Notes under the pieces: model-generated
The model's database searches: none
Told to the model about the DNA's origin: nothing
The model's input: the letters and a program-made list of their open reading frames with translations, nothing else
Assembly: GCA_963765205.1 (NCBI GenBank)
Contig: CAVXVB010000005.1
Location: 416,001 to 480,000 of the forward strand
Length of the DNA: 64,000 nucleotides
Direction of reading: 5' to 3'
Origin: an uncultured Verrucomicrobiae bacterium
Lineage (GTDB): Bacteria; Verrucomicrobiota; Verrucomicrobiia; Opitutales; JABDGR01
Program-made: the position numbers and the translations under genes
In this document: piece after piece, positions 2,204 to 57,211 of the stretch
Layout of the letters: each line of letters begins with the position of its first letter
Position numbering within the stretch: the first letter of the stretch is position 1

Positions 2204-2854
2204 ATGAAACGAGTGGTCATTATTGAAGATGAAACGATGTTGCGCGACTTGCTGGCCGAGCTGCTCAAGAATTTCCCGCTCTGCACCCTCGCTGGGGCCT
2301 ATGGCGACGGGCTGGAGGGCTGGAAGGCGCTCCAGAAGGTCAAGCCCGACATGGTGATTTTGGACATCAAGCTGCCGTCCCTCAACGGCTTGGAGATATT
2401 GCGCCGGCTGCGCGAGCAGTTGCCCAACTGCAATGTTCTGCTCTTTAGCGCCTTTTTCAGCACCAGCATGGTGCGCCAGGCCCTCAAGGCCGGCGCCAAC
2501 GGCATCATTGAGAAAACCGCCGGCCTGCCGGAAATGGAAAAAGCCATCCGCGCCGTGCTGGACAGCGGCACCTACCTCGGCCCCGGCGTGGCGGACATGG
2601 TGCGCCGCATCATGATTGAACCGAACAAGGACGATTCCCTGGAAAGCCTGTCCGAGCGCGAACGTGAAGTCCTCCAGTATGTCGCCGAGGGCTACAGCAC
2701 CAAGGAAATCGCCGTCAAACTTTCCATCAGTGTAAAAACGGCCGAGACGCACCGCTCGAATTTGATGACCAAGCTCAACTTGCACGGCATCGCGGGGCTG
2801 ACGCGTTATGCCATTGAGCAGGGATTGATCAAATCCTCGGCTCCACTCGCCTAA
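2204..2854 (+). CDS. NarL/FixJ (LuxR) family DNA-binding response regulator
   Basis: REC (IIEDE, ILDIKLP) plus LuxR HTH LSEREREVL...KEIA..L.IS.KTAETHRSNLM.KL. Confidence 0.93.
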   Translation: MKRVVIIEDETMLRDLLAELLKNFPLCTLAGAYGDGLEGWKALQKVKPDMVILDIKLPSLNGLEILRRLREQLPNCNVLLFSAFFSTSMVRQALKAGANGIIEKTAGLPEMEKAIRAVLDSGTYLGPGVADMVRRIMIEPNKDDSLESLSEREREVLQYVAEGYSTKEIAVKLSISVKTAETHRSNLMTKLNLHGIAGLTRYAIEQGLIKSSAPLA

Positions 2855-11073: not shown

Positions 11074-13149
11074 TTAATGGCTCTGCAATTTGAGGATGGT
11101 GATGGAGTAGGGGGGCAGTGTGCGGGTGAAGCTGGCGCTGAAGCCGCTCTCTTGCGAGGTGACGGGAACGATTTTCTTCGGCTCGGCGATTGAATTAGTG
11201 TCCGTGAGGCTGTCCGCCTTCATGACCACGGATGCGCCGTCGGAAGCAATGGAGGCCACGCCCTTGATGTCCACGTGCAACGGTGTGGCCGAGGCGAGGG
11301 GGTTGACGAGATTGAGGTAGATGAGGCCGGTCTGGCTGTCGCGCGTGGCGCAGGAATAGAAGGTGGGGACTGGCCGGGGCTGGCCGGGAGGGCCGCCGCG
11401 GCCGCCTTGCGGGGTATAGTCGCGGGTGCCGATATTGGCGGTTTCGCTGGTCAAAATTTCGTCGCCCCGGTTGTTGTTGAACATCACTTGGGCGTAATAA
11501 GCGGGCGAACCGTAGCTGGTCAGTGCATCATAGCCGATCAGGTTGCAGGGCCATTCCATGGATCCGACGGTGCGGGCGCCTTGCGGGTTGCTGACGTTGA
11601 CAAACAAGGGTGCATACGAAGCCATGATGACGACATCGGAATTGCGTTCGAAGCCGGTCATGTAGGCGGCGTCCCCCAGGGCGCCTTGAAAATTCGGGGT
11701 CGGCACGTTGCCGTTGCCGCCGGGCACGCGCGTGGCCCATTCACCTTCAAAAACTTTCGGTCCGTTCCGGTCGTATTTGTCATAAGTGGTCGAGGCGTCG
11801 TCGGATTGCAATTCGGAAGACGTGTAAAGGTGGTGATCCTGCACGTCCCCGGTGCGGTCGGTCGCCCGGCTGGTGAGCCGGCCCTGGGCATTGACACCGC
11901 CGCGGATGGAGGAGTCAATGAGCTGCAGCTTGGGGTATTTGGCCTTGATGGCGTCGTAAAATTGCGTGAAGCGCCCATTGTAGTCGCCGCGCCAGTCTTC
12001 GTTGCCGATTTCGACATAGTTAAGGGTGAACGGAGCCGGGTGGCCGTCCTGAGCGCGTCGCGCGCCCCACTTGGTGTTCACGTTACCCGTGACGTATTCG
12101 ATTTCGTCGAGGGCATCCTGCACATAGGGTTGTAAATCAGGGCCGGCGGCCACTTCACCGTTGCCCAAGGCCAGGCCCGAAAAAACGGCCAACACCGGCT
12201 GCATCTTCAGATCTTCGCACCATTCCAGAAATTCGAGCAGGCCCATGCCGTCGGAGGAACGGTAGCTCCAAGTGCCAGTGTGGCCGGGGCGTTGGGCCAG
12301 GTCGCCGAGGGTTTTTTTCCAATCAAAACGGTTGGCCACGCCGTTGCCTTCGAGGTAATTGCCGCCGGGGAAGCGCAGGAAAGCCGGGTGATAATCCGCC
12401 AGCAATTGCATAAGGTCGGGGCGGTTGCCATTGGGCCGGTCGTTGTAAGTCGGCGGGAACAGTGAAACGAGACTGAACCAAGCCGTGCCGGGCGCATTCG
12501 TCCAAATCAGGAAATTGGCATCCTTGGTCGGCGTGACACTTCCATCGGTTTTTAGGGTCACCTCGTATTTTTGCCAGTCACCCGTGATTTTTGGGATCGT
12601 CGCGTAGGCATAGGTGAGGGGTTGGGTGGTGCTCGAAATAGCGATGCTCAGCGGGCCGGTGAAATGGCCATCGGCCTTGGCGTAGAAGGAGGCGTGATAG
12701 GTGGTGTTCGGCCGCACCGGGATGCCCCAGAAGCCTTCGTTGGCCACGCCCACCCGGAGTTTGTCCGAGGCAGTGGTCGCGGTGAGCTTCAGGCTGACGG
12801 GCAAGGCATCGTTATACTTTTCGGTGGTGTCGAAATCCATGGTGCCACTGGCGCCCGGGTCCTGCACGATGGACCAACGCCGGGGATTGGTGGGAGGGTC
12901 TTGAAAAGTGCGGTTCGCAATCAGTTCGCCATAAAGGCCGCCGTCATAGGCATAATTGATTTCTTCAGTCATAAATCCGTAGAGAATCGGGCTGGAATGG
13001 CCTTTGACTTGATCGGCGTTGATGGTGAGGGTTGCCACTGGGGCGGCGGGTGCTGGCGCATCAGCGGCACACAAGATTCCCGCAGTGGCCGCGAAGACGA
13101 AAAGCGGGCAAATCCACAACAGGGTTTTGGATAAAGGCAGAGTCTTCAT
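11074..13149 (-). CDS. Secreted alpha-L-arabinofuranosidase, GH51 (with CBM-like N-domain)
   Basis: Signal peptide; EEINYAYDGGLYGELIANRTF, FLRFPGGNY, YVEIGNE, VFEGEWA, ERNSDVVIMASYAPLF. Confidence 0.9.
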   Translation of the reverse strand: MKTLPLSKTLLWICPLFVFAATAGILCAADAPAPAAPVATLTINADQVKGHSSPILYGFMTEEINYAYDGGLYGELIANRTFQDPPTNPRRWSIVQDPGASGTMDFDTTEKYNDALPVSLKLTATTASDKLRVGVANEGFWGIPVRPNTTYHASFYAKADGHFTGPLSIAISSTTQPLTYAYATIPKITGDWQKYEVTLKTDGSVTPTKDANFLIWTNAPGTAWFSLVSLFPPTYNDRPNGNRPDLMQLLADYHPAFLRFPGGNYLEGNGVANRFDWKKTLGDLAQRPGHTGTWSYRSSDGMGLLEFLEWCEDLKMQPVLAVFSGLALGNGEVAAGPDLQPYVQDALDEIEYVTGNVNTKWGARRAQDGHPAPFTLNYVEIGNEDWRGDYNGRFTQFYDAIKAKYPKLQLIDSSIRGGVNAQGRLTSRATDRTGDVQDHHLYTSSELQSDDASTTYDKYDRNGPKVFEGEWATRVPGGNGNVPTPNFQGALGDAAYMTGFERNSDVVIMASYAPLFVNVSNPQGARTVGSMEWPCNLIGYDALTSYGSPAYYAQVMFNNNRGDEILTSETANIGTRDYTPQGGRGGPPGQPRPVPTFYSCATRDSQTGLIYLNLVNPLASATPLHVDIKGVASIASDGASVVMKADSLTDTNSIAEPKKIVPVTSQESGFSASFTRTLPPYSITILKLQSH

Positions 13150-13225
13150 GGGGTGGGGTGGAGTGATAAAGCAGAGCCACCCAGCTTGGATTCCGCCGTG
13201 ACAAAGTCCATCCGAAAAAAGCCCG

Positions 13226-14809
13226 TCACGCGCCAACGTCGCCCTGGGTCCAACAGCCATCAATCAGCCGCCACATCCGGCCATTGGGGTTATGGTCGCG
13301 CAAGGCGGCGGGCAGGCGTGCGGCGCGGACATTGTCGTAGCATTGCAGCACGCCAAACCGGCGCAGGGCGGCGGGAATGCCCACGGCGGTAAAGCCCGGA
13401 TGCCCGGTCGCCGGGTAAGGCCCGCCGTGGTTCATCGCCGGGCTGACGGCCACGCCTGTCGGCATCTTGTCGTTGAGCAGGCGGCCCACGCGCCGGCGCA
13501 GGCGCGGTTCCAACTCGGCGCACAGCGCGTCGTCGCTCCCGCGTGTGTCGGAATAAAGGCAGCCGGTGAGGTTGCCTTCGAGGTGTTCCAAAATCGCGCT
13601 TATTTCGCGCGGGTTGCGCGCGACGACCGCGAGCGTCGCGTTGCCGAAGGCCTCCGTTTGCAGTTTTTCCGGCGCATGCAGAAAAACTTCGCCGGACGCG
13701 CGCAACAACGTGTTCGCGTGGCGGTAGCCCGCGCCGCCCACACGCTGCCCGCCGGTGACGAGCTGCGCGCCTGCCGCCTGCAAAGTTCCCACCGCTTCAT
13801 GCATAGCATGGGCCACGCCCGCCGACAACAACGGCGCGGTCGGCGCGGCCTCAAAGCGTTGCTGGACGGCGGCGATAAACGCGTCGGCCGATGCGTCCGC
13901 GATTAAAATAACAATACCGGGGCTGGTGCAAAATTGCCCGGAGCCGAGGAGGCAACTGCCGGCAAATTCCTCGGCGATTTTCGCGCCGCGCTCGGCCAGC
14001 GCGCCGGGCAGAATCACGACAGGATTCACGCTCGAAAGTTCGAGGTAGATCGGCTTGCCTGCGGCGTCGGCGGCGGCCTTGAGCTTCAGCCCCGCGCTGC
14101 GGCTGCCGGTGTAGGCGGTGGCGCCGGTGCGCGGGTCGGCGACGAGGCGCGCGCCGTCGGCGTGGCTGGTGCGGTAAAGCAATTGCACCGTCGCGGGCGG
14201 CAGGCCGGTTTCGTGGAGCGCGGCCAGGGCTTCCTCGGCCAGCAAACGCGTGGTGCCGGGATGCGAAGTGTTGGCCTTGGCGATCACCGGATTGCCCGCC
14301 GCGATGGCTGCCGCGAAATCACCGCCGGCCGCGCTGTTGAATGCGAACGGAAAATTATTCGGCCCAAACACGCACACCGGGCCAATCGGCGCCAGTTGCG
14401 AGCGGATGTTCAGCTTGGGGTCAATCGTCGGCAGCGCCCACGAGCCTTCGAGCGCCGCCGCGGCGGCCTGGCGCAACTGGCCGGTGGTGCGCGGCAACTC
14501 AACGTCCGCCAGGCGCGGCGTTTTCGCCAGCCCGGATTCAAGATGCGCCATTTCCACGAGTTCCGCCGCGCGTTTTTCGATGCGCTCGGCAAATTTAGTG
14601 AGAAATTCGGCGATTTTTTCCGGGGGCGTCGAGCGGAGCAGTGCCGCCGCGCCCGCCGCCGCGGTGAGCGCCGCCGCGCAATCGGCCCAGTCGCTGACGG
14701 GATATTCGTCGGGCAGCGGCTGGCCGAGCGCGGGGTTTTCGGCGCGGAAAACGCCCATCGCGTGGGCCGCGCGCCAGTGTCCGGCAATCAAGATGGGTTG
14801 GGTGGGCAT
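13226..14809 (-). CDS. NADP-dependent aldehyde dehydrogenase, alpha-ketoglutaric semialdehyde dehydrogenase type
   Basis: FGPNNFPFAF, GGDFAAA, YTGS, ELSSVNP, GQFCTSPG, PTGVAV..AMNHGGPYPAT. Confidence 0.87.
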   Translation of the reverse strand: MPTQPILIAGHWRAAHAMGVFRAENPALGQPLPDEYPVSDWADCAAALTAAAGAAALLRSTPPEKIAEFLTKFAERIEKRAAELVEMAHLESGLAKTPRLADVELPRTTGQLRQAAAAALEGSWALPTIDPKLNIRSQLAPIGPVCVFGPNNFPFAFNSAAGGDFAAAIAAGNPVIAKANTSHPGTTRLLAEEALAALHETGLPPATVQLLYRTSHADGARLVADPRTGATAYTGSRSAGLKLKAAADAAGKPIYLELSSVNPVVILPGALAERGAKIAEEFAGSCLLGSGQFCTSPGIVILIADASADAFIAAVQQRFEAAPTAPLLSAGVAHAMHEAVGTLQAAGAQLVTGGQRVGGAGYRHANTLLRASGEVFLHAPEKLQTEAFGNATLAVVARNPREISAILEHLEGNLTGCLYSDTRGSDDALCAELEPRLRRRVGRLLNDKMPTGVAVSPAMNHGGPYPATGHPGFTAVGIPAALRRFGVLQCYDNVRAARLPAALRDHNPNGRMWRLIDGCWTQGDVGA

Positions 14810-29931: not shown

Positions 29932-30333
29932 TCAGACTTCCGCGATAAAATCAACCACCCCGGGCGCGGCGGCCGGTGGGGGCGCCATACTTTCGTGGAG
30001 GATGGCGGGGTCCACGTCGTCGTGCTGCATGAGGCCGAGCAGGGCGACCATGGTGCCGGCGGCGAGAAGCAGGCCGGCGAGGAACAGAATCGTCAGCAAC
30101 GGCGCGTCGTAAATCAAGTGCATGAACCAGAAGATGACGCAGAAAAATTTCACGATGGAGAGGGTGACCAGCGTCGTCATGAGCACCCAGGAGGGCAACG
30201 GCAGAAAAATAACGACGATCTCCACACCGGTGAACACAGACAGGAACAGCGCGAGATTGATAAACGCGTGGTAGCGCCGGTTCTCCTGGACGAGAAGCTC
30301 GGCGTGCGAAAGGGCGTGGGCGGCGGCGCTCAT
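29932..30333 (-). CDS. ctaF: Cytochrome c oxidase subunit IV (caa3-type)
   Basis: Three TMs, VKF..V..WFMHL motif, last gene of the cox operon. Confidence 0.8.
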   Translation of the reverse strand: MSAAAHALSHAELLVQENRRYHAFINLALFLSVFTGVEIVVIFLPLPSWVLMTTLVTLSIVKFFCVIFWFMHLIYDAPLLTILFLAGLLLAAGTMVALLGLMQHDDVDPAILHESMAPPPAAAPGVVDFIAEV

Positions 30334-30354
30334 GGGCAAGGTTCGCGGGGGGCG

Positions 30355-31287
30355 TTATTGGGGCGGGTTGTAGCCGGGGATGTATTCGACCAGGTAAACG
30401 GCGGTGAAAATGATGATCCAGACGATGTCCACGAAGTGCCAGTAAAGGCCCATGATTTCGACATCAATGGCCGCGCTGTGCATGTTCTTCTCGAAACGGC
30501 CGGTAAAGGAGTAGAAATACATGGAGACGAGCCAGAGCACGCCGATGGCGACGTGGGTGCCGTGGGTACCGGTCATCAAAAAGAACGTCGAGCCGAAAAC
30601 ACTGTTTTGCATCGAGAGCGACTTTTTCTCGACTTTCTCCTGCTTGAAGGCGGTGACAATCCAATCGTTATGTTTTACGACCTGCTCGGCGGGGGTGAGG
30701 GCCTTGTCCTCCGGCGCGGTGTCGGCCGGGGCGGCCAGCCAGTCAGGATGGGCCGCGAACAGGCGGTGGGCGAGGTCGGCCTTGGCGCGGGTGGCGTCAG
30801 CCGGACCTTCGTAAGTCGAGGAGATGGTTTCGCCGGCGGGGGTCTTCACCGAGAAGGTATACAGCGCATGCCCGTCGAAAAAGTGCGTAAATTCATAGAC
30901 CTGACCGGTGAGGAAGATGAGGCCGAAAATAATCACGCCAATGGTCGCACGGCGAAAACTCTTGATCTGGCCTTTGTGCATGGCCGACACCGCGAGTGCC
31001 ATCAGGAACGAACTCATCAACAGGATGAACGTCGAGAAGGAGGTGAGCTGGATGTCGAACGTGCTCAGGATGTCAATAATGCCCTTGTCCGTCGAGCCGT
31101 AGGGATAGACTTTGCGGTAAACCAGGTGCGTCGAGATGAGCGTGCCGAAGAACATGCAGTCCGACGCGAGAAAGAGCCACATCAGCACTTTTTTCGTCTC
31201 AATCCCGGTGGCGGTGGGCGGATGCGCGTCGTGGGCCTCGGCGGGGCCGGAGGAATCGGCGTGAGCAATGGCGGCGGTGGCGGACAT
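30355..31287 (-). CDS. ctaE: Cytochrome c oxidase subunit III
   Basis: MWLFLASDCMFF, TGTHGTHV, GLYWHFVDIVW. Confidence 0.92.
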   Translation of the reverse strand: MSATAAIAHADSSGPAEAHDAHPPTATGIETKKVLMWLFLASDCMFFGTLISTHLVYRKVYPYGSTDKGIIDILSTFDIQLTSFSTFILLMSSFLMALAVSAMHKGQIKSFRRATIGVIIFGLIFLTGQVYEFTHFFDGHALYTFSVKTPAGETISSTYEGPADATRAKADLAHRLFAAHPDWLAAPADTAPEDKALTPAEQVVKHNDWIVTAFKQEKVEKKSLSMQNSVFGSTFFLMTGTHGTHVAIGVLWLVSMYFYSFTGRFEKNMHSAAIDVEIMGLYWHFVDIVWIIIFTAVYLVEYIPGYNPPQ

Positions 31288-31318
31288 GGGAAGGGGAAAA
31301 TTCGGCGGGCGGACGATT

Positions 31319-33319
31319 TTAATGATGGGCGGCGGCAGGCGCGCGGCCGTAAGCGGGGGTAGGCTTGGGGGGCATGGATTCAAACGGGACGGCAAGGTGG
31401 TAGCCGCCGGGTCCTTCAATGGCCCACAGATAAATGAAAAATGTCGTCGTCACCAAGCCGCTGATCGCGAGATAGCCGCAATAGGGCACCCCCGCGCTCA
31501 TCAGCACGACGCCCATGCCCAAAATGAAGAAGCCGAAGCCCGCGCCCATCGGCATCCAGGACTGGCTGGGCATGTGGACGCCATGCGACACGTCGGCCTG
31601 ATCGTATTCGATGGGAATATCATGATGCTTGGCCATCCACCAAGCATCGCGGCAGGAGACGATGGGCAGGCGGACATAATTATAATCGGGCACCGGGCTG
31701 GGCAGCGACCATTCGAGCGTGCGGCCGCCCCATGGATCCGGACCGCAGCCGCGCTTTTTGCTGCGGACGGTGATGACGAGGTCGAGGAAGCAGAGGAAGA
31801 CGCCGATGCCCAAAATATAGGCACCCATGGTCGAGACAAAATTCCACAGGTTCCAACCCTTGTCCGGCAGGTAGGTGTAGGTGCGGCGTGTCATGCCGAT
31901 CAAGCCAAGGTAGTGCATCGGGAAAAACGCGACATTGAACCCGACGATGACGAGGCCCGCGACCCAGTAGCCAAGTTTCTGGTTAATCATCTTGCCGAAA
32001 ATTTTCGGCACCCAATAATAAATCCCGCTCAACAAGCCCAGCAGCACGCCGCCCAGCAGCACGTAGTGGAAGTGGGCGACAATGAAATAGCTGTCGTGCT
32101 GTTCGGCGTCCGCCGGCGCGGCGGCGTGCATGATGCCGGAAAAGCCGCCGAGCATGAACATCCACACAAAGCCCAGCGAGAAAATCATCGGCACCGTGAA
32201 TTTGATGCGCCCGCCCCACAGCGTGCCGATCCAGTTGAAAATCTTCACCCCCGTCGGCACCGCGATCGCCATCGTCAGCAGCGAGAACGCCGCCGTGGCG
32301 ACCTTGCCCAAGCCGGTCGCAAACATATGGTGACTCCAGACCGCGAAACCCAGCAGGCCGATCACCGCGCCGGAAAACACAATGATGGGATACCCAAACA
32401 ACGGCTTGCGCGAAAACGTCGGCAGCACTTCGGAGACAATACCCATCGCCGGCAGCACCAGAATGTAAACCTCGGGATGCCCGAAAATCCAGAAGAGATG
32501 CTGCCAGTAAATCGGCTGCCCACCACCCGCCACCCGGAAGAAATTCGTCCCAAAGGTGCGGTCAAAGAGCAATTCGGCCAGCGCGATGGTGATGGCGGGG
32601 AAGGCAAAGATGATGAGGAAGGACGTCACCAGCGTCATCCAGGTGAAGACGGGCAGGCGCATCATCGTCATCCCCGGCGCGCGCAGGTTGATGATGGTGG
32701 TGATGAAGTTGAACGCCGCCGCGAGGGAGGCGACGCCGAGGATTTGCAGGCTGAGAATCCACACATCCGTGCCGATGCCCGTGTAGGGCTTTTCCGTGAG
32801 CGTGGCATAGCCGAACCAGCCGCCCCCGGGCACAATGTCCGTGCGCCCGTCCACCGGGTTGAGGACGTGGATGATGTTGAGCAATTGCAGGAGCCAGGAG
32901 GCGTTCAGGAGGCAGGCCCCCGCGAAAAAAGTCCACAAGCTGAAGGCGTTCAACCGGGGGAAGGCCACGTCGCGCGCCCCGATTTGTAGCGGCACCACGA
33001 AATTGAAGAACGCCGCGGACAATGGCATCACGCCCAGGAAGATCATCGTCGTCCCGTGCATGGTGAAGAGTTGGTTATAAAGCTGCGCGGTGATGATGTG
33101 CTGCATCGGGCGCATCAATTGCGTGCGAATCATCAGCGCCTCGACCCCTCCGACGAGGAAGAAGAAGCACGCGGCCCCGCCATACATGACGCCGATCTTC
33201 TTGTGGTCTACGGTTGTAAACCAGTCCCACCAGCCCGTATGCCGATCCGGCCGCGGCAAGCCGACCCCGCTGCGGCCAGGGGGCAATTCGGTTTTGTGGT
33301 TAATGACGACAGTGGACAT
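31319..33319 (-). CDS. ctaD: Cytochrome c oxidase subunit I, A1 type
   Basis: TVDHKKIG, FTMHGT, GHPEVY, WSHHMF, VAHFHYV. Confidence 0.96.
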   Translation of the reverse strand: MSTVVINHKTELPPGRSGVGLPRPDRHTGWWDWFTTVDHKKIGVMYGGAACFFFLVGGVEALMIRTQLMRPMQHIITAQLYNQLFTMHGTTMIFLGVMPLSAAFFNFVVPLQIGARDVAFPRLNAFSLWTFFAGACLLNASWLLQLLNIIHVLNPVDGRTDIVPGGGWFGYATLTEKPYTGIGTDVWILSLQILGVASLAAAFNFITTIINLRAPGMTMMRLPVFTWMTLVTSFLIIFAFPAITIALAELLFDRTFGTNFFRVAGGGQPIYWQHLFWIFGHPEVYILVLPAMGIVSEVLPTFSRKPLFGYPIIVFSGAVIGLLGFAVWSHHMFATGLGKVATAAFSLLTMAIAVPTGVKIFNWIGTLWGGRIKFTVPMIFSLGFVWMFMLGGFSGIMHAAAPADAEQHDSYFIVAHFHYVLLGGVLLGLLSGIYYWVPKIFGKMINQKLGYWVAGLVIVGFNVAFFPMHYLGLIGMTRRTYTYLPDKGWNLWNFVSTMGAYILGIGVFLCFLDLVITVRSKKRGCGPDPWGGRTLEWSLPSPVPDYNYVRLPIVSCRDAWWMAKHHDIPIEYDQADVSHGVHMPSQSWMPMGAGFGFFILGMGVVLMSAGVPYCGYLAISGLVTTTFFIYLWAIEGPGGYHLAVPFESMPPKPTPAYGRAPAAAHH

Positions 33320-33412
33320 GGAAAAAGAGGAAATTAACGGGCCAGACAGGGTGGAGGATAAGGCGAATTTGCCCAATGTGCAAGTGGAGAGGAAGATTTG
33401 TGCGGACTGGTT

Positions 33413-34807
33413 TTACTTCAAAGTCATCAGGAACGCGGCCAGGTCATGAAAGTCCTGGTCGGTGATCGGGGTTTTATTGTTAATATTCTTTTGGATTATA
33501 TCGCGCAGGCCGCCTGCCGCCGTGCCCTGATGCGGATACCACATGAGGTTGCCGGGCTTGTAGTCGTAGGGATGCGAAATCCAGTTGTAGAAATTGTCCC
33601 GCTGCCGAACGGGGTCAATTGCCTTGCCGTCGTTGTCCAGGTTGTCCAGGAAGCCCGCGGCGATCGAAGTGCGCGAAGCCACATGGGTGAGGTTCGGCCC
33701 CCCGGTGGCGGTTGCGGGGGAGCCATCAATCGTGTGGCATTGGATGCAGCCGGCCCGGCCGATGAATAGCGCCGCTCCGCGCTGCTCGGGGGTCGCCAGC
33801 ATCGTCTGGTCCGGCGGCACACCGTCATCCGGGTCGGGGTTGACGGCCGAGAAAAATTTAGCCCAATTTCCACCGGCGGCCGGCGCGGGCACCTTCTTTT
33901 TAGTTTGTTCCACCCACGCAGCAAAATCCGTTTCGCTGACGACCCGCGCGCGGAAGAGCATGAAGGCGTGGGACTCGCCGCAGTATTGCGCGCACTGGCC
34001 ATAGTAGAGTCCATTCTCATACTGGTCGGCGCCGATGGGGCCGTGGTCGTAGCCATCGGTGGCGGCCAGGCCGTCGTCCGGCATCATCCACATATAGTTG
34101 GCCCGGCCGGGAATCAGGTCCACCTTGCCGGCGATTTTCGGCAGCCAGAAGGAGTGGATGACGTTGTCCGAGCGGAGTTGGAAAACCACCACTTTGCCCG
34201 CAGGCATGACAAATTCATTTGCCGTCGTGATGCCGAACTGCGGGTATTCAAAGCTCCACCACCACTGCTTGCCCTGAACGATGATTTCAAGCGGTTTGTC
34301 ATCCTGGGTTTCCGGCACGGTGCCAACCTTGGCATACCACTGGCCCAGTTCCGAGGTTTTCCAATAGGGTTGGTTGGTCGGCAGCGCATCAGTCAGGAAA
34401 ATGGCTTTGAGCGTCGGCACGGCGATAATGACGAGCAAAGCGATGGAGGCCGTAATCAGCGATATCTCAATCATCGGGTTGCCATGGCCCTGCGACGGCA
34501 TGGGCTTGTGCTCGTCACCCGGACGCTCGCGGAATCGCCACACCACCCAGGCCATTGTCCCGCCCACCGTCACGAAAATAAACGCGGATACCGCAACGGT
34601 GATCCAAAATAGCGACAATTGCTCGCGCGAAACCAAGCCGTGGGGGTCGAGTGTGGACTGCGGCTCCTTCATGCTGCACCCAGCCAGGAACCCCCCGAAC
34701 GCCAGCATTGCCACCCACCGCGCTAAATTAGCGAGGCAGGCCCTCCCCCCCGGCGTGGCCTGCCGTAGGTCGTGGATTAATGGGTTATGAAGCGTCTTCC
34801 TCCGCAT
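33413..34807 (-). CDS. ctaC: Cytochrome c oxidase subunit II with fused cytochrome c (caa3), lipoprotein
   Basis: Lipobox LAGC, two TMs, QWWWSFEY, VIHSFW, CuA motif CAQYCGESHAFM, heme motif CIQCH, GPNLTH, KPGNLM. Confidence 0.94.
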   Translation of the reverse strand: MRRKTLHNPLIHDLRQATPGGRACLANLARWVAMLAFGGFLAGCSMKEPQSTLDPHGLVSREQLSLFWITVAVSAFIFVTVGGTMAWVVWRFRERPGDEHKPMPSQGHGNPMIEISLITASIALLVIIAVPTLKAIFLTDALPTNQPYWKTSELGQWYAKVGTVPETQDDKPLEIIVQGKQWWWSFEYPQFGITTANEFVMPAGKVVVFQLRSDNVIHSFWLPKIAGKVDLIPGRANYMWMMPDDGLAATDGYDHGPIGADQYENGLYYGQCAQYCGESHAFMLFRARVVSETDFAAWVEQTKKKVPAPAAGGNWAKFFSAVNPDPDDGVPPDQTMLATPEQRGAALFIGRAGCIQCHTIDGSPATATGGPNLTHVASRTSIAAGFLDNLDNDGKAIDPVRQRDNFYNWISHPYDYKPGNLMWYPHQGTAAGGLRDIIQKNINNKTPITDQDFHDLAAFLMTLK

Positions 34808-35010
34808 GTGAGCAATTCAAAGGTAAACACTGCGCCAAGGCAGCGACCAGCACAAGGAATTTTTATAAAAATCGCCGCCTTCCCACTCAAGCGGGAAGCG
34901 GTTTTCCCGTGCCGCTAACAGCAATGCTAATCCGCCCGCTTACCTCCACTTAAACTATTCCCTGCTGGCATCAGCGGACGCCGATATCGGGGCCGGTGCA
35001 CGCCCCGACC

Positions 35011-35080
35011 TAGGGATTTTGCTTACTAAGATCGCGGCTCAGCCCCAATTGTTGAATTTTATAGGCTTGGTATAGTGGCC
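35011..35080 (+). promoter_or_regulatory. Putative cyc2 promoter: 15-bp box, CCCAATTGTTGA (-35 region), extended -10 TGGTATAGT
   Basis: TAGGGATTTTGCTTA(35011-25)-N18-CCCAATTGTTGA(35044-55)-N12-TGGTATAGTGGCC; same layout at 36817-36887. Confidence 0.65.
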
Positions 35081-35221
35081 AGGTTGTCTGAACGTTCAGC
35101 CAATTCATCCAACCAGCATCACGCCATGAAATACCGCTCATTCCTCCTCCGCCGCCAGGCCCGCCTGGTGCTGGCTTCTGCTTCAGGCAGTCGATCCCCC
35201 CAACAATCAACCGCCCAGCCC

Positions 35222-36610
35222 ATGAAGCGTCATTTCGCTTGGATTGCAACCTTGTGCTTGACCAGTCTTTTCCTTGCTCCGCTTACTTGCCAGGCGGTGC
35301 CCAGTTTTGCGCGACAAACGGGGCTGCAGTGCATTGCCTGCCATACGGAATTTCCCGAACTCAACAGCACCGGCCGGCTCTTCAAGCTGAGTGGCTTTAC
35401 CCTGGCCCCCGTGCCGAGTGATCTTCCTCCATTTGCAATCATGCTCCAGCCTTCGTTTACGCTGACCCGGCAGGACCAGCCTTCGGGCACCGTGACCCCT
35501 GGATTCAAGCCCAACAGTAATTTTGCCCTCACCCAGGCGAGTCTTTTTTATGCCGGCCGGCTGTTTGGCCCCTATGCCTCCGATCTTTTTGGAAAAGACG
35601 GGGCCGCCATCGCGAATAAATTCGGTATTTTCAGCCAAACCACCTACGACGGGGTCGCGGACCGGTTGCATTGGGACAACACGGAATTGCGCTACGCCGA
35701 CAACCACGACTTGGGCGACACTCCGATGATCTACGGCGCCTACCTGAACAACAACCCGACGCTGCAGGACCCGTGGAACACCACGCCCGCTTGGAGTTTT
35801 CCCTTCAGCCAAACCGGTCTGCCCCGCAATAATGCGAACACGGGGGAGGCCAATGTGCCACCGTCGCCTCTGATTGACGGGCCACTCGCCCAAACGGTAG
35901 CCGGTGCAGGAGCCTATGTGTTTCTGGACAACTCCTATTATTTCGACGTGGCCGCCTACCATATGGTCAGCGCGGAACTCCAAAACAGCCTGGGGATTGA
36001 TCCCGACAATGAAACCCAGATCGCCGGCTTCGCGCCCTACTGGCGGCTCGCGTATACCAAGGCCGTGGACAATAATTCCTTTGAGATCGGCACCTTCGGC
36101 CTCGCGGCCGACACTTACCCGGGTCGCAACCAAAGCGCCGGAACGGATGGGACTTTTGATGTCGGCTTTGACGGGCAGGCGCAGTTCGCATTTGGCCACC
36201 ATGACCTCACCGCGATGCTGTCCTGGATTCACGAGCGGGATAACTGGGCCGCCAGCAGTAATCCGCTCGTGGGCGCCGCCACCAACAGTTACGACAGCCT
36301 GCAAAAATTCAAGGCCACGGTGGACTATTTGTATGACAAGACTTACGGCGCCGCCGTGCAGTTTTTCGATGTGGATGGCAGCGATGATCCGGCGCTTTAT
36401 GCCAACAGCGCAACGGGTTCACCAGGCAGCGACGGTGAGGTTTTGCAACTTAACTGGCTGCCTTTCAATAAAGGCACCGGGCCATCGTTTTGGCCCCGCA
36501 GCAACGTTAAATTCTCGCTCTCTTATACAATCTACAACCGTATCAATGGGGCCAGCCACGGCGCGGCGCAAAACAACACCCTCTACCTCGAGGCGTGGAT
36601 CGCGTTTTAA
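35222..36610 (+). CDS. cyc2: Cyc2-type outer-membrane monoheme cytochrome c-porin fusion (putative Fe(II) oxidase)
   Basis: Signal peptide, then VPSFARQTGLQCIACHTEFPELNSTGRLFKLSGF (Cyc2 PxFARQT-CxxCH-P.L..GR.FK signature). Barrel motifs SLFYAG, NNNPTLQDPWNTTP, APYWRLAY, EIGTFG and C-terminal NTLYLEAWIAF recall Acidithiobacillus Cyc2. Confidence 0.87.
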   Translation: MKRHFAWIATLCLTSLFLAPLTCQAVPSFARQTGLQCIACHTEFPELNSTGRLFKLSGFTLAPVPSDLPPFAIMLQPSFTLTRQDQPSGTVTPGFKPNSNFALTQASLFYAGRLFGPYASDLFGKDGAAIANKFGIFSQTTYDGVADRLHWDNTELRYADNHDLGDTPMIYGAYLNNNPTLQDPWNTTPAWSFPFSQTGLPRNNANTGEANVPPSPLIDGPLAQTVAGAGAYVFLDNSYYFDVAAYHMVSAELQNSLGIDPDNETQIAGFAPYWRLAYTKAVDNNSFEIGTFGLAADTYPGRNQSAGTDGTFDVGFDGQAQFAFGHHDLTAMLSWIHERDNWAASSNPLVGAATNSYDSLQKFKATVDYLYDKTYGAAVQFFDVDGSDDPALYANSATGSPGSDGEVLQLNWLPFNKGTGPSFWPRSNVKFSLSYTIYNRINGASHGAAQNNTLYLEAWIAF

Positions 36611-36816
36611 CCGCCCCCGCTTCCATTCGACCATCCCTAATTCCCGGGATCGCTCGTATGCGGGGCGGGCGGGCGCGTCGGCGGGGTGCTCACCCCATTG
36701 CGGGAGAACCGCAATTATCCTAGAATCGGCTGCAGCGTGACTACGGGCCAATCCACGCGGCAGATTATCTATTCCAGCTTCATCAATACCGAATGGTGGG
36801 TCTGCGCGATGAGGCC

Positions 36817-36887
36817 TAAAGATTTTTCTTAGTGAACTAGAGGGGCGCTCCCAATTGTTGACCCGGCGGGATTATGGTAAAATGGCC
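36817..36887 (+). promoter_or_regulatory. Putative blue-copper gene promoter with the same layout as the cyc2 promoter
   Basis: TAAAGATTTTTCTTA(36817-31)-N18-CCCAATTGTTGA(36850-61)-N13-TGGTAAAATGGCC; TTGTTG to TAAAAT spacer is 17 nt. Confidence 0.65.
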
Positions 36888-36902
36888 CTTAAACTTTCTC
36901 CC

Positions 36903-37430
36903 ATGAAAACAAAATCCAACCTAATCGCCCTTGTATTCATCTTGGCGCTCGGCCGGCTCCCGGCCCAAACCGCCCCGGCTACTCCCGCTGCTTCTGCAGG
37001 ATCCGCCGCTCCGGCGGCTTCGGCTGCCCCGGCGACTCCCGCAGTGGCCCCGCTCGTGGTGGACATTGTTGTCAATGATATGATGACCTTCAGTGTCACC
37101 AAAATCCAGGCCCATCCCGGCCAGACGGTTACCATTAAACTTAAGAACACGGGCACCCAGCCCAAGGCGACAATGGCCCATAACTGGATACTGCTCAAAG
37201 CAGGCACGGACTTGAACGCTTATGCGGCGACGGCGGCCACCGACAAGGCCAAGGACTTCCAGCCCAAAGCGCTCGCCGACCAGGTCTTGGCCTCCATTCC
37301 GATGATTGGGGCCGGTGAATCCGGGAGCGTAACCTTCACCTGCCCGACGACACCGGGCACCTACAAATACCTCTGCTCCTGCTACGGCCACTCCATGACC
37401 GGCATGAAGGGCAGCCTCGTCGTCAAGTAA
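36903..37430 (+). CDS. Periplasmic type-1 blue copper protein (azurin/auracyanin/rusticyanin-like cupredoxin)
   Basis: Signal peptide, Pro/Ala linker, MAHNWIL (His ligand), YLCSCYGHSMTGMKG (Cys/His/Met ligands). Confidence 0.88.
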   Translation: MKTKSNLIALVFILALGRLPAQTAPATPAASAGSAAPAASAAPATPAVAPLVVDIVVNDMMTFSVTKIQAHPGQTVTIKLKNTGTQPKATMAHNWILLKAGTDLNAYAATAATDKAKDFQPKALADQVLASIPMIGAGESGSVTFTCPTTPGTYKYLCSCYGHSMTGMKGSLVVK

Positions 37431-37491
37431 GACCCTCGGTCCTCGGTTGAAACCGAGAAAGCCGCATAAGACTGGAAGGCTTTTCCCCGCC

Positions 37492-37698
37492 TTAGACCGT
37501 TGTTCCCGCATCGTCGGGTGCCGTTACCACAGGGATGGGAGCATCGGCAGGCGGGGTTGGTGCGTCCGGAGTGGCCTCGCGCATCGGCGGCGGGTCGTTC
37601 TTCAGCAAAAACAACAATGGGGAAATGGGCACGCCGAGCGCGCAGCCTCCGGCGAAGAGGCCTAAAACCAGCAGTAGAAGGGAGAGGGATTTTTTCAC
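37492..37698 (-). CDS. Small putative lipoprotein (68 aa)
   Basis: GTG start, VKKSLSLLLLVLGLFAGG-C lipobox-like signal, Pro/Asp/Thr-rich tail. Confidence 0.5.
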   Translation of the reverse strand: MKKSLSLLLLVLGLFAGGCALGVPISPLLFLLKNDPPPMREATPDAPTPPADAPIPVVTAPDDAGTTV

Positions 37699-37802
37699 AA
37701 CACGAGTTCCCGCCGGGGATGGGGTGGGGCAGACGTGCCCGGCGACCCACCTCAATAACCGAACCTGGGGTGTGTGGCAACAGGTTTCGGAGGGGGGCTG
37801 GG

Positions 37803-51279: not shown

Positions 51280-52200
51280 ATGCCCGGCGTATTAGGATAT
51301 GGTTGGCACGAAGGAAATCGTGGCGAATATTTGGCGCAATATTTTTTGTCGAAATTAGGGGTATCTGCCCCCGTAATCCGGCAAGAAGATATCGGTGTCG
51401 ACTTTTATTGCGCATTGGCAAAAGAAGAAAATAAGAAGCTGATCTTCCACTCACCCTACGCTGTCCAGTCTGGGTCGGCAGAAGCAAAAGAATTTATCTA
51501 TGGCGATTTTACTGAAACAGGAAAATGGAGAAAAGAGGGAATCGAATGGCTATTTTCGCAAGAATTGCCTTTGTTTGTCTGCACAACCGAACGCGCAAAA
51601 GCCCGTTTCCGACTGTACTCTACAAGTGCGATGTGGTTGGTTCGGTATCAATTTGGCCATATAACGCAACTTATTCTTTGCCCTGATGAGTTCCATGACC
51701 CCTTAAATGAATCGCGCAGCAAAGACCCAATTGCCGCTGCGGGGTATGGCGACGGATTCAGTTATAGGATTCCGCTTGGTAATCCTGTAATTGACCTCGA
51801 CATTTTTGAACTAGAAACCGAAAAATCAGCGAAGGCCTGTGACGCCCTTACGCTGGCAATCCAAATCGAACAGACAAATATCACGTTTAGGCGACTCGGG
51901 ATTCATATCGCATCTTGGTTCCCCAATATAAGACCTAACGATCCAACTTCTCTCCGTAATCAGGGAGGCTCGATTTTTTGGAATTCAAATCCCGGACAAA
52001 ACATCGAAGCCCAGATTAATTCCCTTAAAAATATCTCCCTAACACTTGCACTCAATTTCGGAGCCCAAGGTCTCCATGAGCAAATTTCCCACTTAGCTCC
52101 CGTCTTCAAACTTTTCCCCAAACAGGAAATCCCAGAATGGATATTTTCCAAACTTCCTAAAGCTGTCCAGGAAGTTATTGGAACCACCTTAAGCGTTGCA
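51280..52200 (+). CDS. Low-GC hypothetical protein, possible PD-(D/E)XK/DUF4365-like N-terminus; true 3' end uncertain (ORF reads on to 52560)
   Basis: AT-rich ORF; EGNRGEYLA...RQEDIGVDFYC...VQ pattern. The tail beyond ~52200 overlaps kdgK out of frame. Confidence 0.55.
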
Positions 52201-52273
52201 AATACCCCCTCAGTTTTGGCTTCCTCATTCGGCTTTTTTCCCGTTTCCTTGCGTCTCCCCCTGTTCCCCCTCC

Positions 52274-53371
52274 ATGAGCCTCCCCATCAAACCCGCCTCC
52301 GATTGCACCTTCGACATGATCGCCCTGGGCGAAATCATGCTGCGCCTCGACCCCGGCGAGGGGCGCGTGCGCACCGCCCGCGAATTCAAGGTGTGGGAGG
52401 GCGGCGGCGAATACAACGTCGCGCGTGGCCTGCGGCGCTGTTTTGGACTGCGCACGGCGGTCGTCACCGCGTTCGCCGACAACGACGTGGGCCGACTGCT
52501 CGAAGACTTTATCCTGCAAGGCGGCGTGGACACGCGCTTCATCCGCTGGATTCCCTATGACGGGGTGGGGCGCACGGTGCGCAACGGGCTGAACTTCACC
52601 GAGCGCGGTTTCGGCCTGCGCGGTGCGGTGGGCATTCCCGACCGGGGGAATTCCGCCGCCTCGCAAATGAAGCCCGGCCAGGTTGATTGGGACAATATCT
52701 TCGGCAAGCTCGGCGTGCGCTGGCTGCACACAGGGGGCATTTTCGCCGCGCTGTCGGACACCACCCCCGCGCTGGTCGAGGAGGCCGTCCAGGCGGCGAA
52801 AAAGCACGGCGTCATCGTTTCCTATGATTTGAATTACCGGCCCTCGCTCTGGAAGGCCATCGGCGGCAAGGCCCGGGCGCAGGAGGTCAACCGCCGCATC
52901 GCGCGCTACGTGGACGTGATGATCGGCAACGAGGAGGACTTCACCGCCTGCCTCGGCCTCAAAGTCGAGGGCCTCGACGAGAAAATTTCGCACATCGAAA
53001 TTGACGCCTTCAAGGGCATGATTGAGAACGCGGTGAAGGAATTTCCGAATTTCAAGGTCGCCGCGACCACCCTGCGCACGGTCAAAAGCGCCACGCGCAA
53101 CGACTGGAGCGCCATTTGCTGGCACGACGGAAAGTTTTACGAATCCAACGCCTATCCCGACCTCGAAATCCTCGACCGCGTCGGAGGCGGCGACAGTTTC
53201 GCCTCGGGCCTGGTCTATGGATTCCTCAAGCACAACGACGCCGCCCAGGCCGTGCAATACGGCGCAGCCCACGGCGCGCTGGCGATGACCACCCCCGGCG
53301 ACACCTCGATGGCCTCGTTGGACGAGGTGGAAAAAGTCATCGGCGGCGGCGGCGCGCGGGTCGTGCGATAA
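52274..53371 (+). CDS. kdgK: PfkB sugar kinase, 2-keto-3-deoxygluconate kinase
   Basis: [45 protein letters not shown]. Confidence 0.87.
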
Positions 53372-53378
53372 ATTTTCT

Positions 53379-53453
53379 ACCACAAAAAACGCAGAAGACG
53401 CAAAAGACAAAATCTAATTGGGATTTTTTTGCGTCCTTTGCGTTTTTTGAGGT
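53379..53453. repeat. Palindromic 9-mer-period repeat (ACCACAAAA variant)
   Basis: accacaaaaaacgcagaagacgcaaaag ... ttttgcgtcctttgcgttttttgaggt. Confidence 0.65.
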
Positions 53454-53472
53454 AAACCCTTTCTCCTCTCTC

Positions 53473-54252
53473 ATGTCCTACCTCGAAACCCTCTTTTCCC
53501 TCGAAGGCAAAACGGCCGTCGTCATTGGCGGCACCGGCGAACTCTGCGGCGCGATGGCCGAAGGCCTCGCCGGCGCCGGCGCGACCGTCATCCTCGTCGG
53601 CCGCAATCCCGACAAGGCCGCCGCGCGCCTCGCCAAAATCCACCACGCGCACCACTCCCGCGCCTGGTTCGAGTCCGGCGACGTGAAGTCCAAGGACGCG
53701 TTGACGGATTTGCTCGACCGCATCCTGGCCAAGGCCGGCGGCGTGGACATCCTCATCAACGGCGCGGGCGTCAATTCGCCAACGCCGTTCCTCGAAATCA
53801 CCGAGGAGGAATACCAGCGCATCGTGGACACGAACATTAAGGCGGTGTTCCTGGCTTGCCAGGTATTTGGGCTGTATTTTTTGGAGAGCGGCCGCGCGGG
53901 CAGCATCATCAACATCGGCTCGATGGCGGCGATGAAGCCGCTCTCGCGCGTCTTCACGTATTCGGCGACGAAGGCGGCGGTGCATAATCTGTCCGGCAAC
54001 CTCGCGCGCGAATGGGCGGCGAAGGGCGTGCGCGTCAACACGCTGGTGCCCGGTTTTTTCCCCGCCGAGCAAAACCGCAAGGTACTCACGCCGGAGCGCG
54101 TCGCGCAAATCATGGGGCACACGCCGATGAAGCGCTTTGGCGAGGCGGCCGAGCTGGTCGGCGCCACGCTGCTGCTGGCCTCCGACGCCGGCCGCTTCAT
54201 CACCGGCATCGAGCTGTTGGTGGACGGCGGCTTTAACTGCATGGCGATCTGA
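53473..54252 (+). CDS. SDR oxidoreductase, D-mannonate/fructuronate oxidoreductase-like
   Basis: [31 protein letters not shown]; lies between kdgK and uxaC. Confidence 0.8.
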
Positions 54253-54375
54253 AACTGGAATTAAGAATTAGGAATTAAGAATTAAGAAGTAAAACAACAA
54301 TGTCCGCACGCCATTAGCCGGCCATTTTTTATTTTCACCTCGTTTCGTAATTCGAAATTTAATAAATTTATCTTT

Positions 54376-55788
54376 ATGAGCTTTTTGAACGACAACTTCC
54401 TCCTGCCCACCGAACTGGCGCGCACGCTTTACCACCAGGCCGCCGCGCCGGAACCGATTCTCGACTACCATTGCCACCTGCCGCCCAAGGACATCGCGCA
54501 AAACCGCCAGTTCAAGAACCTGTTCGAGGCCTGGCTCGAAGGCGACCACTACAAATGGCGCGCGATGCGGACGAACGGCGTCCCCGAGGATAACATCACC
54601 GGCCCGCTCGACCCCTGGGAGAAGTTTTTGTGCTGGGCCAAAACCGTGCCGCACACGCTGCGCAACCCGCTCTATCACTGGACGCATCTCGAATTGCGCC
54701 GCTATTTCGGCATTGAGACCCTCCTTAACGAACACAGCGCGCGCCGCATCTGGGACGAGGCCAACGAAAAACTCCAGACGCCGGAACTTTCGACGCAGGG
54801 CATCCTGCAAAAATTCAAGGTCGCCGCCGTTTGCACCACGGACGACCCGGTGGACTCGCTCGAATATCATCACGCCCTCGTGGATCAGAACATCGCCACG
54901 CGCATGTTCCCCGCGTATCGGCCCGACAAGGCTTTCGCGGTGGACAATCCCTCCGCTTTCAACGCCTGGATTGCGAAGCTCGAACAGGCCAGCGGGCTGG
55001 ATTGCGCGAAATTCGACGGCTTCCTCGCCGCGCTCGACCACCGCCATGCCTTCTTTCACAGCTTCGGCTGCCGCCTCTCCGACCACGGCCTTGAAGCGAT
55101 GTTTGCCGGCCCGTGTTCGGATATCCAGGCCGCGATGATTTACGATTCCGCGCGCGCCGGCCGCCCCGCGCCGCCCGCGCACGCCCAGGCCTTCGGCTTT
55201 TGCCTGATGCTGCATTTGGGCCGGCTCGACCACCAGCGCGGCTGGACCAAGCAGCTCCACCTCGGCGCCATCCGCAACAACAACCTCTACTTGATGGACC
55301 GGCTCGGCCCCGACACCGGCAGCGATTCTATCGGCGATTTCCCGCAGGCCCGCACCCTCTCCGCCTACCTCGGCGCGCTCGCCAAGGAGGAGCGCCTGCC
55401 GAAAACCATCCTCTACAACGTCAACCCCGCTGACAACTACGTCTTCGCCTCGATGATCGCCAATTTCCAGGGCGGCGGCATCCCCGGCAAATTGCAGTTC
55501 GGCTCGGGCTGGTGGTTCCTCGACCAGATTGAGGGCATGAGGTGGCAGCTCAACGCGCTGTCGAATAACGGCCTGCTCTCGCGCTTCGTCGGCATGTTGA
55601 CGGACTCGCGCTCGTTCCTCTCCTATCCGCGCCACGAATATTTCCGCCGCTTGCTTTGTGGGATGCTCGCGGAAGATGTCGCCGACGGCGCGGCGCCGCA
55701 CGACCTCGATTTGCTCTCGAATTTGGTGCGCGACGTTTGCTTCCGCAACGCGCGCAATTATTTCGGCCTCGCGCTGCCGCCCGAATAA
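54376..55788 (+). CDS. uxaC: Glucuronate (uronate) isomerase
   Basis: [62 protein letters not shown]. Confidence 0.96.
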
Positions 55789-55810
55789 GCGCGCCGCACT
55801 GCTTCCCGCC

Positions 55811-57118
<1,308 letters not shown>

Positions 57119-57126
57119 GAAGGATT

Positions 57127-57203
57127 TTGAACCACGGAGAACCCGGAGAACACAGAGGATTTATATCCCCCTCTCCGTGCTCTCCGGGTCCTCTGTGGTT
57201 CAA
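57127..57203. repeat. Palindromic 9-mer-period repeat (ACCACGGA family)
   Basis: ttgaaccacggagaacccggagaacacagagg ... ctctccgtgctctccgggtcctctgtggttcaa. Confidence 0.75.
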
Positions 57204-57211
57204 TTTTATTT

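Follow-up and report, generated by a model that had tools for sequence, protein, structure and literature searches.

Does a Cyc2-type outer-membrane cytochrome, encoded beside an oxygen-reducing oxidase in a sugar-degrading soil bacterium, bring electrons into the cell, and through which partners? The question is raised by positions 29932 to 37700 of the window, the 64,000-nucleotide stretch of contig CAVXVB010000005.1 analysed here. The initial annotation read the locus as a candidate Fe(II)-oxidation module and a minimal counterpart of the rus chain of Acidithiobacillus ferrooxidans. Follow-up analysis identified the cupredoxin encoded after cyc2 as a dedicated azurin-type partner of Cyc2, and the two genes as an accessory cassette at a core caa3 oxidase locus. 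The reading judged slightly better than an even chance is an inducible chain that would run inward from Fe(II) or reduced humics through Cyc2 and azurin to caa3 and would give a heterotroph extra energy. The genes concerned are listed below; G000 denotes the window's genome, other G labels the genomes of relatives, and L labels individual loci in genomes or metagenomes.

35222..36610, plus strand: cyc2, a Cyc2-family monohaem cytochrome c fused to a 16-strand porin, 462 aa
36903..37430, plus strand: azurin/auracyanin-B-type type-1 copper protein, 175 aa, ATG start
33413..34807, minus strand: oxidase subunit II, a lipoprotein with CuA site (CAQYCGESHAFM) and fused monohaem c (CIQCH); PF00116 and PF00034
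31319..33319, minus strand: A1-type haem-copper oxidase subunit I, 666 aa; PF00115, E 2.7e-148
30355..31287, minus strand: caa3 oxidase subunit III; PF00510, start inferred from congeners of 307-311 aa
29932..30333, minus strand: caa3 oxidase subunit IV; PF03626, ATG start by congener comparison

Cyc2 membership was confirmed by motifs and a modelled fold. The N-terminal region carries a hydrophobic leader (judged by eye and modelled as helix 4-18), AVPSFARQT, GLQ, CIACH as the single CxxCH of the protein, TEF and PEL, and the C-terminal residue is Phe. Both published motifs, AXPXFAR[Q/K][T/Y] before and PXL after CxxCH (PMC8406198), are present, and the spacing AVPSFARQT-x3-CxxCH-x3-PEL is identical in the rus-type Cyc2 of L209. 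The family has at least 365 aa and a 16-strand porin barrel. An AlphaFold2 model built from a 109-row alignment (mean pLDDT 85.5, pTM 0.84) gave the expected barrel, with 16 long strands and resemblance to porins including OprO/OprP (best VIA Z 21.9, rmsd 3.8, 321 aligned). Searches of Pfam, NCBIfam and, by sequence, the PDB returned no match to the protein, and in the ESM Atlas it met unnamed 'cytochrome C' clusters at 0.99, with a hint of porin O/P from 20% of members. The family is large, since 6,627 of 8,000 scored candidates passed E 0.001.

On sequence identity, this Cyc2 may belong to the same cluster (cluster 2, as defined in PMC7029218) as that of A. ferrooxidans. Against the rus-type Cyc2 of G769, identity is 31.5% (tblastn, residues 9-460), or 30% over all alignment columns. 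Both values fall inside the printed cluster 2 range of 26.7-35.2%, for which the cluster membership of the rows comes from table grouping and recall, and identity between clusters is at most 23.1%; the Cyc2 tree contained no cluster 1 or cluster 3 reference. Plasmid matches came from Burkholderiales, Acidiphilium and Hyphomicrobiales, the taxa named around AfCyc2. Codon bias does not clearly indicate recent transfer (GC3 percentile 12th for cyc2 and 22nd for the azurin gene). Separately, plasmid locus L200 (CP084173.1, 5959-8255) carries a Cyc2 homologue and a c-type cytochrome, annotated hypothetical, beside a transposase, and an Acidiphilium cryptum plasmid carries a homologue with the same score and identity.

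The gene after cyc2 encodes a periplasmic cupredoxin, as first annotated, now refined to azurin/auracyanin type. It matches Pfam Copper-bind, has an Ala/Pro-rich linker and a basic domain (computed pI 9.0), and its copper ligands His...Cys-x4-His-x4-Met are invariant in 8/8 aligned homologues. A rusticyanin identity was rejected, since TIGR03095 gave 22.3 bits against a cut-off of 146.7 and the nearest PDB entries are auracyanin and azurins (1ov8, E 5.5e-18; also 3ay2); the NCBIfam azurin model, at 69.3 bits, is likewise below its cut-off of 105. The copper site and the Ala/Pro-rich N-terminal linker are those of azurin and auracyanin B (1ov8, 3ay2). The azurin of the window differs in two ways: it falls in a group that goes with Cyc2 and is distinct from the second azurin of the family, and its CSCYGH loop has an extra Cys two residues past the copper-ligand Cys, found in the genus and one other subclade.

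The pairing with Cyc2, proposed at the outset, proved real on two counts. A high-scoring azurin paralogue (E ~1e-75) occurs in exactly the 3/10 family genomes that have cyc2, and a second, lower-scoring azurin (E 1e-28 to 1e-38) occurs in 9/10; the 5 rows of the latter that were recovered by pattern (4 were not) form a branch of their own. Moreover, azurin adjoins cyc2 in 15 of the 30 loci from the sister family and in 7 of the 17 with a Verrucomicrobia title, which are overlapping sets, and the complete genome G311 has two cyc2-azurin pairs. Prediction of a Cyc2-azurin complex lent slight support, with a score of 0.45 against 0.00 for the best control, contact agreement of at least 50% and partner pLDDT of at least 86. 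The mark used was reached by 116/157 solved and 2/215 mismatched pairs; at scores of 0.60 or less, just 18 solved pairs and both mismatches are found, and a pass there is more often wrong unless the pair is likely beforehand.

Charge is consistent with this partnership. All five cox-linked azurins are basic (pI 8.0-9.2; related rows, small n), Cyc2 has a pI of 4.6 and the CuA region 4.8, which would fit a basic shuttle between the two acidic surfaces; the azurin of a congener that is not linked to cox is acidic, with a pI of 6.0. The carrier itself appears to be swappable, because two close relatives differ at this point: in L006 (11387-15754) cyc2 is followed by azurin and then resB-ccsA, and in L011 (7770-11271) by a monohaem cytochrome c and then resB-ccsA. 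In RNA run X6 (share 0.05), two contigs cover parts of the azurin gene, 36903-37109 with 0 differences and 37116-37278 with 1. The cyc2 pieces listed for this run show 9-16 mismatched letters and DNA carry-over is possible, so the run is not counted as evidence of expression; runs X2-X5 were left aside as indicators of habitat.

The oxidase is the four-subunit A1 enzyme first annotated, with haem c fused to subunit II and genes divergent from cyc2 at a distance of 414 bp. Subunit I carries GHPEVY, RDVAFPRLN, PTGVK, TMHG, WSHHM and HFHY, which cover the D and K channels and the haem and CuB ligands, and scores 663.6 bits against TIGR02891, slightly below the cut-off of 670.75. Subunit II, which scores above the TIGR02866 cut-off, combines a lipobox with the CuA motif and a single CxxCH, so that the full set of A1 caa3 features is present. 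Subunit IV homologues in the cox loci of relatives are 57-81% identical. A contig from a DNA run, which may be the source sample, spans the cox-cyc2 junction (34025-35347) with 0 differences.

The initial annotation took the fused haem c to stand in for Cyc1. This idea was not sustained: subunit II with haem c occurs in 6/6 congeners and 8/9 other family genomes, cyc2 in only 2/6 congeners, and alternative complex III (ACIII) is present as an ordinary electron donor to the oxidase. Subunit II is core and cyc2-azurin accessory; therefore the fused haem c predates the cassette, with no evidence of a designed Cyc1 replacement. Oxidases of the Rhodothermus/Flavobacterium type are caa3 enzymes fed by ACIII. 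The present enzyme shares with them a subunit II that is a lipoprotein and bears both CuA and a fused haem c, and ACIII genes in the same genome, and differs in that an outer-membrane entry module has been inserted at the cox locus in some lineages.

Comparison with the rus system sets the limits of the analogy. The A. ferrooxidans operon reads cyc2-cyc1-cup-coxBACD-rus (PMC10654088, PMC9592645), and the pathway is also described in PMC5566968 and bioRxiv 10.1101/2021.03.22.436458. As there, Cyc2, possibly of the same cluster, a periplasmic blue-copper carrier and a haem-copper oxidase are encoded together, with the oxidase genes adjacent to cyc2. Here, by contrast, cyc1, cup and rusticyanin are missing (no ORF for a dihaem cytochrome c4 or for cup/AcoP lies between 29932 and 37700) and the carrier is of azurin type; the oxidase is a core caa3, encoded on the other strand behind an upstream element of its own, ctaA and ctaB being on C8; and the host is a heterotroph in which RuBisCO was not found. 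Being divergent, cyc2, carrier and cox genes do not form one same-strand operon, and the module consists of two transcription units. In function the locus would correspond to the downhill branch of the rus pathway, of which it is not a member.

A chain free of Cyc1 is not unique to the window. G769, whose rusticyanin-like protein reaches 137 bits, below cut-off, was taken as the reference, since G698 had a rusticyanin above cut-off and no Cyc2 match. ORF reading and tblastn revealed in G769 (C3:236058-244808; L209, L212) a rus-type operon without cyc1, arranged cyc2-cup-coxBACD-ctaA-ctaB-rus. Its Cyc2 is 30-38% identical to that of the window depending on the measure, and it too has no dihaem cytochrome between Cyc2 and oxidase. 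It differs in being a single same-strand operon, in its rusticyanin-like carrier and in a subunit II without fused haem c.

The cassette appears to be regulated separately from cox, by a promoter and an operator of its own, both putative. The non-coding features are:

34913..34955: non-coding element, conserved, in the cox-proximal part of the cox-cyc2 gap; probably the promoter region of cox
35010..35026: palindromic putative operator, (C/A/T)TA(A/G)G-N7-C(C/T)TAG, upstream of cyc2
35068..35076, plus strand: putative extended -10 box of cyc2 (TGgTATAGT), inferred from conservation
36816..36832: second operator copy, upstream of the azurin gene

The cox-side element is 90-93% identical over 42-43 nt in L126 and L127 and has no match in the cyc2-upstream DNA of L001, L002 and L129. 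The cyc2-upstream DNA is conserved independently of cox: TATA(G/C)TGGCC is invariant in 5/5 aligned regions, the operator is conserved in L001, L002, L126, L127, L129 and L137, and it recurs in the cyc2-azurin spacer of L126. A sigma-70 consensus scan called no cyc2 promoter (1 site vs 1.1 expected), and no FNR-type box was found in the cox-cyc2 intergenic region.

Several controls bear on the operator. The window contains 3 sites (6 strand matches) against 0.29 matches expected. A matrix built from the sites of five relatives found 18 sites in the genome, 17 of them intergenic, where shuffled intergenic DNA gave a mean of 1.96 (maximum 5) and permuted columns a mean of 1.72 (maximum 10). A second matrix, built from 12 sites not upstream of cyc2, scored above 15 bits upstream of cyc2 at 6/6 genus-clade loci (just two of these, L129 and L154, being independent of the first matrix), and at 1/27 other loci, 0/14 bc-type loci and 2/600 random genes. 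The exact pattern occurs in 4/10 family genomes, namely the three with cyc2 and G008, and in none of the other six.

The remaining targets suggest under which conditions the cassette would be induced. Operator sites lie ahead of an adenylate kinase-PPK2 locus, a SulP transporter gene, PRC-barrel genes and an operon of PAS kinase and LuxR. They also precede an erythromycin-esterase-like gene that accompanies PEP synthase, and a run of genes on one strand that includes Hsp20 and a ribosome-hibernation factor; sites are kept at orthologous genes in G003, G006 and G008. We take this set to resemble the hypoxia or dormancy regulons of DosR/NreC type, and the palindrome may likewise resemble NreC and DosR boxes. 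It also gives room to a non-energetic role, held to be quite unlikely, in which surface oxidation of Fe(II) or another metal serves detoxification or homeostasis, or redox sensing, within a stress response, with the oxidase as a sink. The conserved stress-type targets fit such a role, as do the NRAMP transporter that accompanies hemN in the G003 cassette and a patchy distribution (4/401 genomes sampled across the order; homologues on plasmids of Ralstonia, Caballeronia and Methylocystis). However, any flow into a proton-pumping oxidase conserves energy, and the window's cassette holds no chemoreceptor, copper oxidase or efflux genes.

Some observations on the regulon stand apart. Its loci lie at G000 C9:329-367 kb, C5:108-117 kb and C9:863-871 kb, and at L283-L289 in G003, G006 and G008. 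The candidate regulator is a LuxR-type response regulator (C9:334326-335069) with orthologues 66-78% identical in G003, G006, G008 and G001, the last of which has no exact operator site. A LuxR-type regulator is also encoded within the window (2204-2854, with a site at 2133), but it makes a poor candidate, being present in 10/10 family genomes including operator-free ones. Co-regulation of cbb3 was rejected, as the two sites are ~600 bp off, before a different, oppositely oriented gene. A protein family of ~170 aa without a Pfam match lies directly behind the operator in several copies and genomes (G000 C5:111578-112090, C9:332336-332848 and C2 near 77030; L283, L284, L288, L289).

Besides the window, cyc2 was found in 2/9 other family genomes, both congeners, and in 30/301 genomes of the sister family; among the seven genus genomes three have cyc2, two of these at cox. 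In G001, G004 and G006 the junction of PIG-L, a small ORF and coxII is intact without cyc2, and G005 (50% complete, with a scaffold gap by coxII) was not counted as a true absence. The small ORF, native to the cox locus, marks the insertion point:

37492..37698, minus strand: small lipoprotein-like ORF, 68 aa

The window's Cyc2 clade (7 rows, SH-aLRT 98) lies inside a 65-row Verrucomicrobia-type clade (SH-aLRT 100), in a quick tree of 84 rows that left out near-duplicates and fragments and to which three loci gave no usable row. Five of the seven rows are cox-linked, and the pair takes four positions there. In the window and L127 it separates coxII from the small ORF, in L126 it separates the small ORF from PIG-L, and in L001, accompanied by hemN and NRAMP, it separates coxII from coxI. 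In L129 it follows coxIV, a placement that is less secure, since the L129 5' end, upstream of coxIII, seems to be chimeric near base 154. Genes cyc2 and cox are divergent in the window, L126 and L127 and on the same strand in L001 and L129, yet there too the cassette keeps its own operator. In a CoxII+CoxI tree of 11 rows, cassette-bearing loci interleave with cassette-free ones (L127+G006 99.9/99, L126+G005 97/97), hence repeated losses or moves of the cassette. Its persistence near cox through several rearrangements suggests selection, short of proving it. Of the expected synteny, the cyc2-cox linkage does recur in relatives and is confined to one genus-level clade; the metagenome rows, recruited via cyc2, are a biased sample.

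A number of observations weigh against delivery to caa3. Cox genes adjoin cyc2 in just 1/80 genome loci and 4/74 metagenome loci (one being the L001 strain), and lie within 1.5 kb of it in 0/30 sister-family loci. In L002 (8.6 kb contig) cyc2 has no cox neighbours, and the cox locus of that genome has no cyc2; L137 has cyc2 without adjacent cox or adjacent azurin. The four placements could have arisen by local shuffling after one insertion, without selection. The operator scores 16-26 bits at cyc2 and azurin against 10-11 bits or less upstream of cox, and the cbb3, the cbb3-like oxidase with ACIII and the bd oxidase of the genome suit low O2 better than caa3. The Cyc2 family as a whole is not tied to oxidases, because 12/30 sister-family loci pair a close Cyc2 with a multihaem cytochrome. 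Two papers caution that many members of clusters 2 and 3 are unverified and found in non-iron-oxidisers (PMC8406198, PMC5566968).

These points lead to a rival that appears improbable, in which the inward Cyc2-azurin step is retained and the electrons pass to cbb3 oxidases or ACIII, the position at caa3 being an inherited, locally shuffled insertion. It would account for a cassette promoter and operator kept away from cox in L002 and L137, for a regulon that appears stress- or hypoxia-like, for the presence of those oxidases in the genome, for the lack of cox near most cyc2-azurin pairs outside the genus clade, and for the ACIII genes directly downstream of cyc2-azurin in L168. It sits poorly with five of seven clade rows at cox in four placements, one of them within the operon, and with a basic azurin charge that tracks cox linkage in the genus. 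The inward chain ending at caa3 remains preferred.

Direction of flow is a further matter. Outward transfer, in which electrons leave under hypoxia via azurin and Cyc2 onto Fe(III) or humic quinones, is rated improbable. Humics have been proposed as acceptor for Cyc2-carrying lake taxa (PMC6344600), and the A. ferrooxidans chain is described as reversible (bioRxiv 10.1101/2021.03.22.436458). The other operator targets appear to resemble hypoxia genes, and a sister subclade pairs Cyc2 with an operon of FAD/Fe-S oxidoreductase, Rieske protein, cytochrome b and hexahaem cytochrome. On the other hand, the pair sits beside an O2 reductase, and no multihaem surface conduit was found among the CxxCH proteins called in the genome by our own gene caller, the largest being the pentahaem ACIII subunit. 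Type-1 copper sites with an axial Met usually lie at +200 to +350 mV, too positive as a rule for ferrihydrite or humic quinones at mild pH, and therefore inward flow is favoured. The range reported for iron is -110 to +110 mV (PMC8406198).

The sister-family arrangement is a second Opitutales context of Cyc2. At L003, L004, L008 and L012-L016 (e.g. L004:4902-11371), genes for an FAD/Fe-S oxidoreductase, Rieske protein, cytochrome b, hexahaem cytochrome c and Cyc2 follow on one strand, a candidate link, on gene content, of Cyc2 with the quinone pool and NAD(P). Neighbours of cyc2 at the 30 sister-family loci are azurin in 15, the hexahaem cytochrome in 12 and neither in 3; both together never occur. 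One Cyc2 subclade holds 17/18 of the bc-type rows.

In the preferred inward chain, dissolved Fe2+ and/or reduced humic quinones would act as a small reductant from outside the cell that enters the Cyc2 barrel and reduces the periplasm-facing haem. Azurin would then ferry the electron through the periplasm to a haem-copper oxidase. The most likely recipient is the haem c/CuA of caa3 subunit II, and caa3 would reduce O2 and pump protons. As the host draws its carbon from sugars, the gain would be additional energy or energy for maintenance, probably when oxygen is low or the cell is under stress. The hemN gene of the G003 cassette also speaks for this chain. Families, motifs, fold model, linkage, co-occurrence and operator are observed; the direction, the azurin-caa3 transfer and the inducing condition are what we infer. 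Fe(II) is the best single candidate donor because all three tested Cyc2 proteins oxidise it (PMC8406198); as the main donor it is a tentative proposal overall, short of an even chance, and humics or mixed donors seem fairly unlikely. In a lake methanotroph, dissolved organic matter up-regulated cyc2 (PMC12211021).

A wider and doubtful proposal is that polysaccharide-degrading Opitutales living in soils, peat and humic lakes cover their maintenance energy by oxidising Fe(II) or reduced humic quinones via a portable Cyc2-azurin cassette, under a dormancy/hypoxia-type LuxR-family regulon and with selection at caa3, the sister lineage using a bc-type quinone module. If so, cluster 2 Cyc2 would be a survival-energy device of heterotrophs and not a marker of iron-dependent growth. 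Metagenome studies count Cyc2 homologues as iron-oxidation markers, and the role of the many unverified homologues in non-iron-oxidisers is stated as an open question in PMC8406198. To this the locus contributes a periplasmic partner that can be named and a candidate for the terminal oxidase. Congeners that have or lack the cassette serve as natural controls, and the operator allows a prediction of when the cassette is expressed.

Part of this picture was already known. Cyc2 homologues are listed in Verrucomicrobia, including the Trout Bog Opitutae metagenome-assembled genomes (MAGs) TH2519 and TE1800 (PMC6344600, Table S3), which share with the window the protein family, the host class and a proposed link to iron/humic redox cycling; the accessible parts of that paper do not mention an azurin partner, oxidase linkage or regulation. 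Cyc2 was also reported in new phyla, with none named for the Verrucomicrobia MAG in the available portion of PMC8357290, and iron oxidation alongside organic carbon use was argued for Leptothrix ochracea (PMC11412304). In the available text of a 2026 review (PMC13741234), the terms 'Verrucomicrob', 'azurin' and 'auracyanin' are absent. In the open literature, subscription papers not being covered, no account was found of a Cyc2-azurin cassette at an Opitutales caa3 locus or of the operator; the figshare tree of PMC8406198 may already hold such Verrucomicrobia leaves. The Cyc2-blue copper-oxidase design and Cyc2 in Opitutae are thus already known, and the partner type, the host and the regulation are new.

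The Opitutia-type host proposed at first was upheld as Opitutales, the two best genome matches being titled uncultured Opitutales and congeners by kinship. Genes for arabinofuranosidase, uronate isomerase and FGGY and PfkB kinases (11074-13263, 52196-60197) are consistent with sugar degradation. Mixotrophy in the carbon sense was left unsupported, as neither RuBisCO nor CdhC was found in the 92% complete genome; other carbon-fixation pathways were not searched, and a search for ATP-citrate lyase was uninformative, since no control rang. The cytochrome c maturation system on which the chain depends is present in CcsA/ResB form (a PF01578 frame of 738 aa with a ResB-like neighbour, on C5), and the haem A and haem O synthases ctaA and ctaB were identified by PF02628 and TIGR01473. 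The respiratory chain is richly branched: besides cbb3, bd and ACIII with a cbb3-like oxidase, it includes a bc-type set and a [NiFe] hydrogenase.

Further supplementary electron routes are the [NiFe] hydrogenase cluster at G000 C8:491761-497456, which adjoins transposon genes, and a separate Rieske-cytochrome b-dihaem c set at G000 C2:100167-102488. The CuA loop reads CAQYC in 9/9 genus-level rows, with Gln replacing the usual Glu, and CAQFC in G007; G008 retains Glu. The 68-aa lipoprotein-like ORF has homologues 45-61% identical in L001, L109, L110, L114, L126 and L127, stays beside coxII/PIG-L in congeners and is possibly a small oxidase-associated protein.

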